Position numbers and translations under genes: made by a program. A stretch of 63,133 bases of DNA, counting the filler, from Methanobacteriota archaeon (GTDB lineage: Archaea > JACRDV01): assembly GCA_024860865.1 (NCBI GenBank). It is 6 parts of 6 records of this genome, joined end to end, with 100 filler letters (N's around TTAATTAATTAA, not from the genome) between each part and the next. Parts side by side here need not be neighbours in the genome. Positions count along the whole stretch, not along the records: positions 1 to 10,951 come from JACRDV010000009.1; 5 more parts are not named here. One strand, written 5' to 3'. The notes beneath the pieces were generated by a model. The model saw only the letters and a program-made list of their open reading frames with translations. It did no database searches and was not told the origin of the DNA. Numbering within the stretch: position 1 is the first letter of the stretch; every line of letters begins with the position of its first letter. Of this stretch, positions 9,754 through 10,088 are shown one piece after another.

Positions 9754-9900
9754 AAATGAAATCAATTTAATTGGGAGCAATTCTTGAAGCATTAGGGTCA
9801 ATTCAAAAGATAGGCAGAATTTGATCTTATTTTCAAGTTTTAACGAATTTTTAGCAAAAATAAATTAGCTGTAGCAAGGTTAAAAAAACAAAAAACCAGA

Positions 9901-10050
9901 TCTGCACCAAATATCCGGCTTGTTCCAACCGACTCCTATTAAGGCAGTAACCGAGTCCTACCTTAAAGGGATTCCAGCTTTGTCAATCAGAACTTCACTG
10001 CGAGTCTCTCGGGCCCACAGTTTGCCTGCTGATTCCGGTCGGTGCAGACA
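9901..10050 (-). ncRNA. Candidate ~150-nt stand-alone structured ncRNA of unknown family
   Basis: 10-bp terminal stem (9901-9910/10039-10048), internal stems, BRE-TATA at 10072-10088 on the minus strand, T-tract at 9882-9895. Confidence 0.7.
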
Positions 10051-10071
10051 ACTAATAATGGATGCACATTA

Positions 10072-10088
10072 TACTTAAACTTTTTTTG
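10072..10088 (-). promoter_or_regulatory. BRE + TATA box for the candidate ncRNA
   Basis: Minus strand CAAAAAAAG-TTTAAGTA about 24 nt upstream of the terminal stem. Confidence 0.6.

Follow-up and report, generated by a model that had tools for sequence, protein, structure and literature searches.

In RNAs of the purine-riboswitch type, a three-way junction carries two arms that are tied together by a loop-loop contact, and the function of the archaeal Hgc RNAs was unknown when these were discovered. The Hgc genes were reportedly described by Klein, Misulovin and Eddy in 2002 as noncoding RNA (ncRNA) genes forming GC-rich islands in the AT-rich Methanocaldococcus and Pyrococcus. The present study concerns an orphan RNA gene predicted on the minus strand of a 63,133-nucleotide (nt) stretch of DNA, hereafter called the window, in which the contigs of the bin deposited as Methanobacteriota archaeon JACRDV01 (GCA_024860865.1) are joined by N linkers. 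Like the Hgc genes, this orphan RNA gene is a stand-alone GC-rich folding island in AT-rich DNA, with a promoter-like box and an oligo-T end of its own. Judged from its sequence, it probably encodes a genuine, independently transcribed and lineage-restricted structured RNA of about 150-155 nt, for which a function can only be inferred.

The predicted RNA body of 154 nt occupies positions 9896-10049 of the minus strand and is numbered here from nt 1 at position 10049. It was delimited by the GC island, the fold z-score, the pair probabilities and the comparison with a second sequence (X4, described below), and its ends are approximate, the 5' end possibly lying at 10049-10053 and the 3' end somewhere in the T tract. 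About 20 nt upstream of this segment, a promoter-like element (10069-10088) is composed of an A-rich tract resembling a B recognition element (BRE) and then the TATA-like TTTAAGTATAA. Directly 3' of 9896, the segment is followed by the terminator-like oligo-T tract T6-G-T7 (9882-9895). Archaeal transcription terminates at oligo-T tracts, and the upstream box and the T tract both appear to be consensus-type transcription signals. The BRE-TATA, the stems and the oligo-T tract listed by the first-pass annotation of this locus were all recovered on the minus strand at the coordinates reported here. Taken 100 nt at a time, the GC fraction was 0.45-0.54 inside the RNA and 0.17-0.25 in the flanks, with 36.6% for the whole window, and among the window's intergenic stretches comparable values were found only for the RNA, the tRNA gene and two contig-end regions. 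The tRNA gene, which is the sole one in the window, carries a similar upstream AAAAAG...TTTAAGT, and the distance from the end of AAAAAG to the first G of the RNA is 30 nt in both genes. The orphan RNA is single-copy in the window and was absent from the 88 other loci compared.

The minus strand folds with a minimum free energy (MFE) of -58.6 kcal/mol (z -2.78), and one of 200 dinucleotide shuffles folds as well, whereas the plus strand reaches -45.9 kcal/mol (z -2.31), which is 12.7 kcal/mol worse. In the Boltzmann ensemble calculated with ViennaRNA, from which all pair probabilities were taken, the layout drawn by the first-pass annotation is preferred over the MFE fold. In this layout, the 5' strands of the stems P1 and P2 (10035-10049) pair with their 3' strands (9900-9918), the latter being separated by an AUAU bulge (nt 136-139). 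The terminal stem P1 is formed by UCUGCACCGA and UUGGUGCAGA (10048-10039 / 9910-9901) and is lengthened by G10049-U9900 to 11 base pairs (bp), so that nt 1-11 pair with nt 140-150 at probabilities of 0.72-1.0. P2 (CCGG/CCGG; 10038-10035 / 9918-9915) pairs nt 12-15 with nt 132-135 at probabilities of 0.82-0.83. Two wobble pairs of P1, G1-U150 and G10-U141, are possible only on the minus strand. The stems begin at the predicted transcript start and end just before the T tract.

Two arms extend from the junction closed by P1 and P2. Arm A (nt 16-65; 9985-10034) leads from a 6-bp stem through a 7/6-nt internal loop to an 8-bp stem, which is capped by the 9-nt loop CCCGAGAGA. Its lower stem AAUCAG/CUGAUU (10034-10029 / 9990-9985; nt 16-21 with nt 60-65) has probabilities of 0.48-0.59, and its upper stem (nt 29-36 with nt 46-53), the hairpin (A)CUGUGGG/CUCGCAG(U), has probabilities of 0.97-1.0. 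A GACAA linker joins arm A to arm B (nt 71-123; 9927-9979), which has a G-U-rich stem of 6 bp, then stems of 3 bp and 9 bp, and ends in the 10-nt loop GACUCGGUUA. Here the 9-bp hairpin UUAAGGUAG/CUGCCUUAA (nt 84-92 with nt 103-111) is the firmest part (0.98-1.0), followed by the 3-bp stem (nt 79-81 with nt 114-116; 0.93-0.96) and the lower stem (nt 71-76 with nt 118-123; 0.52-0.68), and the linker GGAACAAG leads from arm B back to P2. The lower parts of both arms are uncertain because the MFE fold pairs nt 57-68 with nt 117-128. The arms are near-identical in build, each having a 6-bp stem, an internal loop of about 7/6 nt, a stem of 8-9 bp and a loop of 9-10 nt, and a similar G(G)A(A)CAA(A)G strand lies 3' of each. 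The first-pass annotation had pointed out that three stems depend on G-U pairs available to the minus strand alone. G-U pairs make up eight of the 47 in the model, and these become A-C mismatches on the plus strand, which fixes the strand as minus as far as the sequence allows.

A pseudoknot had earlier been suggested between GACUC in loop B (9957-9953) and a downstream GAGUC (9935-9931; nt 115-119). Both words are indeed present, but GAGUC is already paired in the dominant fold, where it overlaps the stems 79-81/114-116 and 71-76/118-123. In addition, three of the six 5-mers of loop B have a Watson-Crick complement somewhere in the RNA, so a single match of this kind is unremarkable. A kissing pair between the apical loops is a better tertiary candidate, and a reasonable one. 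The segment CCGAG of loop A (nt 38-42; 10008-10012) and the segment CUCGG of loop B (nt 95-99; 9951-9955) could form five Watson-Crick pairs between the apical loops of arms of equal length, and 5-bp complementarity between loops arises by chance in 3.6% of shuffled loops (20,000 trials) and in 2.3% of random loops with the composition of the RNA.

Four public sequencing runs (X1-X4) share words with the locus, and the lineage of the RNA has so far been seen in runs labelled groundwater and hot springs. X1, possibly the sample of origin, holds the locus nearly whole, including a 760-nt contig across 9859-10500 that runs straight through the RNA and its flanks. X4, labelled as a hot springs metagenome, contributes a contig of 213 nt that spans exactly 9896-10108, in which TTTAAGTAT (10079-10071) is identical to the window. 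This contig differs from the window at three positions in the 154-nt RNA and by six substitutions and two indels in the 59 nt of upstream flank, a contrast (3/154 against 8/59) with a Fisher P of 0.0019, or 0.015 for substitutions only, in which the flank is AT-rich promoter DNA. The three changes in the RNA are all transitions on the minus strand (nt 51 A>G, nt 49 G>A and nt 27 A>G). Two of them (9999 and 10001) fall in the upper stem of arm A, where U31-A51 becomes U-G and U33-G49 becomes U-A with pairing kept, and the third (nt 27) falls in the internal loop of arm A; arm B is unchanged. The substitutions and indels of X4 fit neither of the two short open reading frames (ORFs) overlapping the RNA, and these two ORFs gave no Pfam family match. 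On the gene next to the RNA, a convergent ilvD (8092-9753) whose 3' end lies downstream of it, the contigs of X2 and X3 cover only the 3' end and X4 has none, while no X2 or X3 contig falls on the RNA itself; these gaps prove nothing. One X2 contig, with eight differences in 169 nt of the ilvD 3' end, continues with unlike sequence after 9768, which hints that the region may be variable.

Comparison with known families is consistent with the earlier view that the RNA belongs to none of them. No match to any of the 4227 Rfam families was obtained at the gathering score, and searches of 601 nt and 181 nt around the locus at E<=10 returned noise only, the sub-threshold matches being rimP (16.8 bits, cut-off 47) and SorX (15 bits, cut-off 46.6). 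The RNA was rightly set apart from tRNA, ARAGORN and RF00005 giving only the tRNA gene at 34956-35045, and from 5S rRNA, RF00001 giving no match at E<=10; as a positive control, RF00001 gave 5S matches of 71-80 bits in five of five related genomes. The tRNA gene itself lies on the minus strand, is 89-90 nt long with an intron-like insert, scores 55.6 bits with the Rfam tRNA model and has an anticodon that ARAGORN did not name. C/D box small RNAs are marked near their ends by a C box (RUGAUGA) and by a D box (CUGA); UGAUGA is absent from the 154 nt and the one CUGA is internal (nt 60-63), in keeping with the first-pass annotation, which had not recognised a C/D RNA here. It had likewise considered a riboswitch unlikely, with no ORF following the RNA. 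No same-strand gene for a riboswitch or other cis-regulatory leader to act on was found downstream, where the T tract is followed by the convergent 3' end of ilvD and the minus strand holds no ORF except a 30-residue frame overlapping the ilvD end. As there is no downstream gene and the RNA has its own terminator, it is not taken to be a cis-regulator. The candidate of a miniature inverted-repeat transposable element or other transposon end was rejected, the RNA being single-copy in 63 kb with no flanking direct repeat and no plasmid or phage match; read as inverted repeats, the P1 arms match at nine of ten positions. Full-text literature searches on structured noncoding RNAs of Thaumarchaeota and other archaea brought up no account of such an RNA, which supplementary motif lists might nevertheless hold.

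Several observations weigh against a genuine structured RNA gene. With R1, a covariance model built from this single RNA sequence, no homologue was found in sets of 101, 40, 40, 40, 5 and 150 GTDB genomes (partly overlapping). A 16.1-bit R1 match at one locus (L089) was discarded, because shuffles fold at least as well as this locus does (z +1.22) and neither a promoter box nor a T tract was seen beside it. Two exact 20-mers had no match in IMG/VR, and a three-block loop and junction pattern had none in JGI metagenomes. A junction pattern with R/Y-coded stems hit 11 JGI stretches, of which nine are one protein-coding gene and none match R1. Phage and plasmid collections gave no blastn match, and a BLAST search with the RNA in the genomes of five ilvD relatives returned chance matches only (E >= 0.59). 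At -2.78, the z-score of the fold is moderate, and the plus strand reaches -2.31. The plus strand has A/T-rich promoter-like boxes and a T7 run of its own, and the promoter-like motif is not enriched window-wide (34 matches against a shuffle mean of 31), so the case for the minus strand comes from the wobble pairs and the folding energies. The differences in X4 were called from a contig with a depth of 4.1, and differences at a depth below 5 may be errors. The pair-keeping changes of X4 are weak evidence, since such changes are common by chance: no pair is broken by 75% of single transitions placed at random or by 42% of triples placed in this way. The two known sequences are about 98% identical, with no compensatory double change between them. 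There is no RNA dataset among the public runs sharing words with the locus. Lastly, the locus lies about 490 nt from a tnpB remnant and beside an assembly break, and could be part of decaying accessory DNA.

Upstream on the RNA strand, very AT-rich DNA is followed by this transposon remnant, an IS200/IS605-type deletion derivative with truncated tnpB (10539-10751, minus strand) that has kept the left-end region and about the first 35 codons of tnpB. A 40-residue frame (10548-10670) is 89% identical to the N-terminus of a 391-residue TnpB with PF07282 and PF01385 (P0122), and residues 1-61 of this relative survive at 10751-10566, the rest being gone. The tnpB residues are followed at 10551-10539 by the right-end-like terminus GTAGGTAGTTCAC, which resembles the GGTGGTAGTTCAC end of the three closest related tnpB loci. 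Because residues 1-61 are followed by such a terminus, the remnant is regarded as a deletion derivative with its own end, and because that end is at 10539, the RNA lies outside it, across the AT-rich spacer. The contig itself breaks off at 10951. Positions 10811-10951 are the exact reverse complement of 62993-63133 (141 nt, 100%), indicating that the first and last contigs are neighbours in the assembly graph and that the break is a graph branch, not a gap. The order on the RNA strand is two small frames (61826-62269 and 62266-62679), a 450-nt GC-rich stretch, the tnpB remnant, the AT-rich spacer and the RNA. The stretch 62680-63133 has 52% GC and no ORF of 100 residues or more; it gave no Rfam match at E<=1, and its fold over 62690-62990 was insignificant (z -1.6 and -0.9). 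On the plus strand, a 200-nt stretch of 17-20% GC holds a single exact GTTCCAGTGGAAA (10167-10179), which resembles the core of an Orc1/Cdc6 origin recognition box. Since no second GTTCCAGTGGAAA-like copy lies nearby, there is no case for a replication origin. Elsewhere on the plus strand of the window, a 1072-residue secretion/pilus-type ATPase (T2SSE; 46540-49758) is split by an intein with a LAGLIDADG homing-endonuclease domain, and deoxyhypusine synthase appears as two adjacent frames (44474-44977 and 45023-45583, profile positions 3-121 and 148-286), the result of gene splitting, a frameshift or faulty assembly.

Given these surroundings, the segment could be a non-functional relic, a decayed piece of some gene or mobile element lying in accessory DNA, GC-richer and folded by chance, with A/T-rich flanks that mimic transcription signals. 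Such a relic would suit the truncated tnpB on the same strand with its GTAGGTAGTTCAC end like that of its relatives, the contig break at 10951, the X2 contig that turns unlike after 9768, the lack of homologues in any collection searched and a promoter-like motif as frequent as in shuffles (34 against a mean of 31). It is nevertheless fairly unlikely, as the RNA diverges much less than its flank in X4, eight wobble pairs give the fold a strand asymmetry, and the stems start at the predicted transcript start and finish just short of the T tract; the two short ORFs, which no protein family matches, are moreover excluded by the pattern of substitutions and indels. That the RNA is the omega-RNA of the TnpB element next to it, or an orphan guide serving some other nuclease or recombinase encoded by a transposon, is very improbable. 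The RNA and the tnpB remnant do share a strand, with the RNA in the downstream position, but the remnant has its own end at 10539, about 490 nt away. TnpB was compared across 12 related loci (46-57% identity) plus L112 (36%), and the three closest (L113-L115, 54-57% identity) have a ...GAAGCCACC...GGTGGTAGTTCAC 3' end that the RNA lacks. R1 scored at most 12 bits on these 13 tnpB loci, and nhmmer found nothing in the 3' regions of the 12. Relatives of P0122 occur in 22 of 401 genomes with a 3' RNA end that differs from the orphan RNA, and none were found in IMG/VR. The two arms with matched internal loops also recall the dual guides of IS110 bridge RNAs, but no TnpB, IscB or IS110-type gene adjoins the RNA. 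Words from the internal loops co-occur in the window at eight sites for arm A, where 30 shuffles average 1.1 and reach at most 4, and at four for arm B, where the shuffle mean is 1.7; the sites lie far apart, mostly with a mismatch, and do not single out any one target.

Other explanations assign the RNA a different task. A trans-acting base-pairing regulator, an archaeal small RNA (sRNA) using unpaired loop or junction bases on mRNAs, is unlikely. Its size and multi-stem build lie within the range of archaeal regulatory sRNAs, and the near-repeat GACUCGGUU / GAGUCGGUU could provide two similar seeds, but one copy is paired in the dominant fold and the other is in the loop able to kiss loop A. 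The strongest match elsewhere in the window, a 13-nt identity at 20905-20917 (E 0.12), is at chance level. In H/ACA RNAs, an ACA or ANA box lies 14-16 nt 3' of the top of the pocket, and a two-hairpin H/ACA-like pseudouridylation guide finds some support in arm A, with a 7/6-nt loop and an ACA (nt 67-69) starting 13 nt after the loop top (nt 54), and in arm B, where opening the 3-bp stem would give a 7/6-nt loop and an ACA (nt 127-129) lies 15 nt after nt 112. Both spacings, 13 and 15 nt, agree approximately with the rule, and loop A (CCCGAGAGA) reads NNN-GA-GA-GA and could form a K-loop. Even so, there is little chance that the RNA is such a guide. Against the 16S and 23S rRNAs of three relatives, which are distant and stand in for the host's own, the arm A pocket had no site of at least 3+3 bp around a U, and the best arm B site (9 bp) was equalled by 101 of 300 shuffled pockets; arm B, with its perfect 9-bp stem and a loop that lacks the GA pattern, shows no evident kink-turn (K-turn) or K-loop, and a terminal stem that encloses both hairpins after the 3' ACA is not an H/ACA feature. 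Still less credible is a structured mRNA for a 25-residue hydrophobic peptide of the type I toxin kind, starting at a TTG at 9928 on the minus strand. An AGGAG, 4 nt and then the TTG precede a strongly hydrophobic tail, and the paired 5' and 3' ends with GGAG buried in a stem recall type I toxin mRNAs. However, the frame is shorter than 30 residues and runs through T6-G-T7, so that the Phe/Leu-rich tail is the translated T tract; the X4 contig, against which the conservation of the frame would be judged, ends at 9896. The first-pass annotation had faintly suggested RNase P RNA, and a miniature form of it can hardly be what this locus encodes. Its favourable points are a loose likeness of GACAAAGCUGG and GGAACAAGCCGG to the conserved regions CR-I and CR-V and the terminal P1-like stem. 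This resemblance did not hold, since none of the models for RNase P RNA of the archaeal types A, M and T gives a match at the gathering score or at E<=10 on the 601 nt and 181 nt, and no P4-like helix is possible, AAAGCUGG and CAAGCCGG being alike but not complementary when checked by hand. The sole possible CR-like pairing is a 4-bp CUGG/CCGG in competition with P2.

The same suggestion had drawn on a HARP in the window, which is indeed encoded on another contig of the bin as a candidate protein-only RNase P at 38667-39353 on the minus strand (PF08745 PIN_5, E 5e-86). According to a review (PMC10941002), HARPs belong to the PIN_5 cluster and coexist with RNA-based RNase P in HARP-encoding archaea, so the presence of HARP is no ground for expecting a reduced RNase P RNA. 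The HARP gene directly adjoins the histidyl-tRNA synthetase gene (37378-38658).

This synthetase (HisS, 37378-38658), together with CysS (5060-6469, on the same contig as the RNA) and IlvD (8092-9753), served as a marker for the host lineage. CysS had one match of 97% among 5.8 billion proteins, the next being at most 59%, and its named matches are Nitrososphaeria at 53-56%. The best CysS identity was 55% in 401 genomes of the phylum, 56% in 401 genomes of the class and at most 48% among 40 relatives of genome G001. The nearest genomes by CysS are Nitrososphaeria-like (55-59%). The nearest HisS is in a metagenome-assembled genome (MAG) labelled Euryarchaeota (52%), with 39% for Thermoproteota MAGs, and IlvD, whose relatives in GTDB are at most 64% identical, is about equally close to both groups (63-64%). 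Because HisS and CysS point to different genomes, the lineage placement or the purity of the bin is uncertain, and either a mixed bin or a very deep lineage may be the cause. From these comparisons the host appears to be a deep-branching archaeon most like Nitrososphaeria (Thermoproteota).

If the orphan gene encodes a structured RNA, as we consider probable, transcription would start about 25-30 nt downstream of the BRE/TATA-like element and stop at the T6-G-T7 tract. The 5' and 3' ends of the transcript would pair, through P1 and then P2 past the AUAU bulge, closing a three-way junction that would bear two arms of near-identical build, and a 5-bp kissing contact of the apical loops would hold the arms side by side in a compact body. 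Our best guess is that such an RNA would be a stable protein-binding scaffold, with the twin internal loops as paired binding sites; this role is suggested by the architecture alone, which counts against the reading as a whole, and a ligand-binding or base-pairing regulatory role is less likely. More speculatively, and with distinctly lower confidence, the RNA might be the founding member of an undescribed, lineage-confined class of compact archaeal RNAs, defined by a three-way junction and two pseudo-symmetric arms locked by kissing loops, in which the two matching internal loops would create a site for binding or catalysis, serving a dimeric protein, a small ligand or self-cleavage. With two near-identical sequences known, the label of a class is unproven.

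Structured RNAs of uncultured archaea are barely charted, and the host lineage is poorly sampled. Provided that transcription and conservation of the fold can be confirmed, the RNA would bring a new family to a catalogue that is still thin, with a testable architecture of twin arms and kissing loops. At present it is one among many orphan ncRNA candidates, and a claim of new biology is not justified.

Set beside known systems, the orphan RNA shares with 5S rRNA a stand-alone gene, a three-way junction closed by paired ends and the word GAAGUU, but it is 154 nt long as against about 120 nt and its junction strands differ. Its two hairpins with pocket-sized internal loops, each followed by an ACA at about the right distance, are H/ACA-like, whereas its enclosing terminal stem, the lack of an evident K-turn in arm B and a complementarity to rRNA at chance level are not. 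In architecture it comes close to a purine riboswitch, with P1 closing a three-way junction, arms of equal length and apical loops complementary over 5 bp, but its arms are about three times longer, each has a large internal loop, and no riboswitch model matches it. Compared with the Hgc RNAs, it gives no match to the Rfam Hgc families, and its host is Nitrososphaeria-like with 36.6% GC, not a hyperthermophilic euryarchaeon. While it belongs to no known family, the orphan RNA is of a known kind, that of the orphan GC-island ncRNA genes of archaea.

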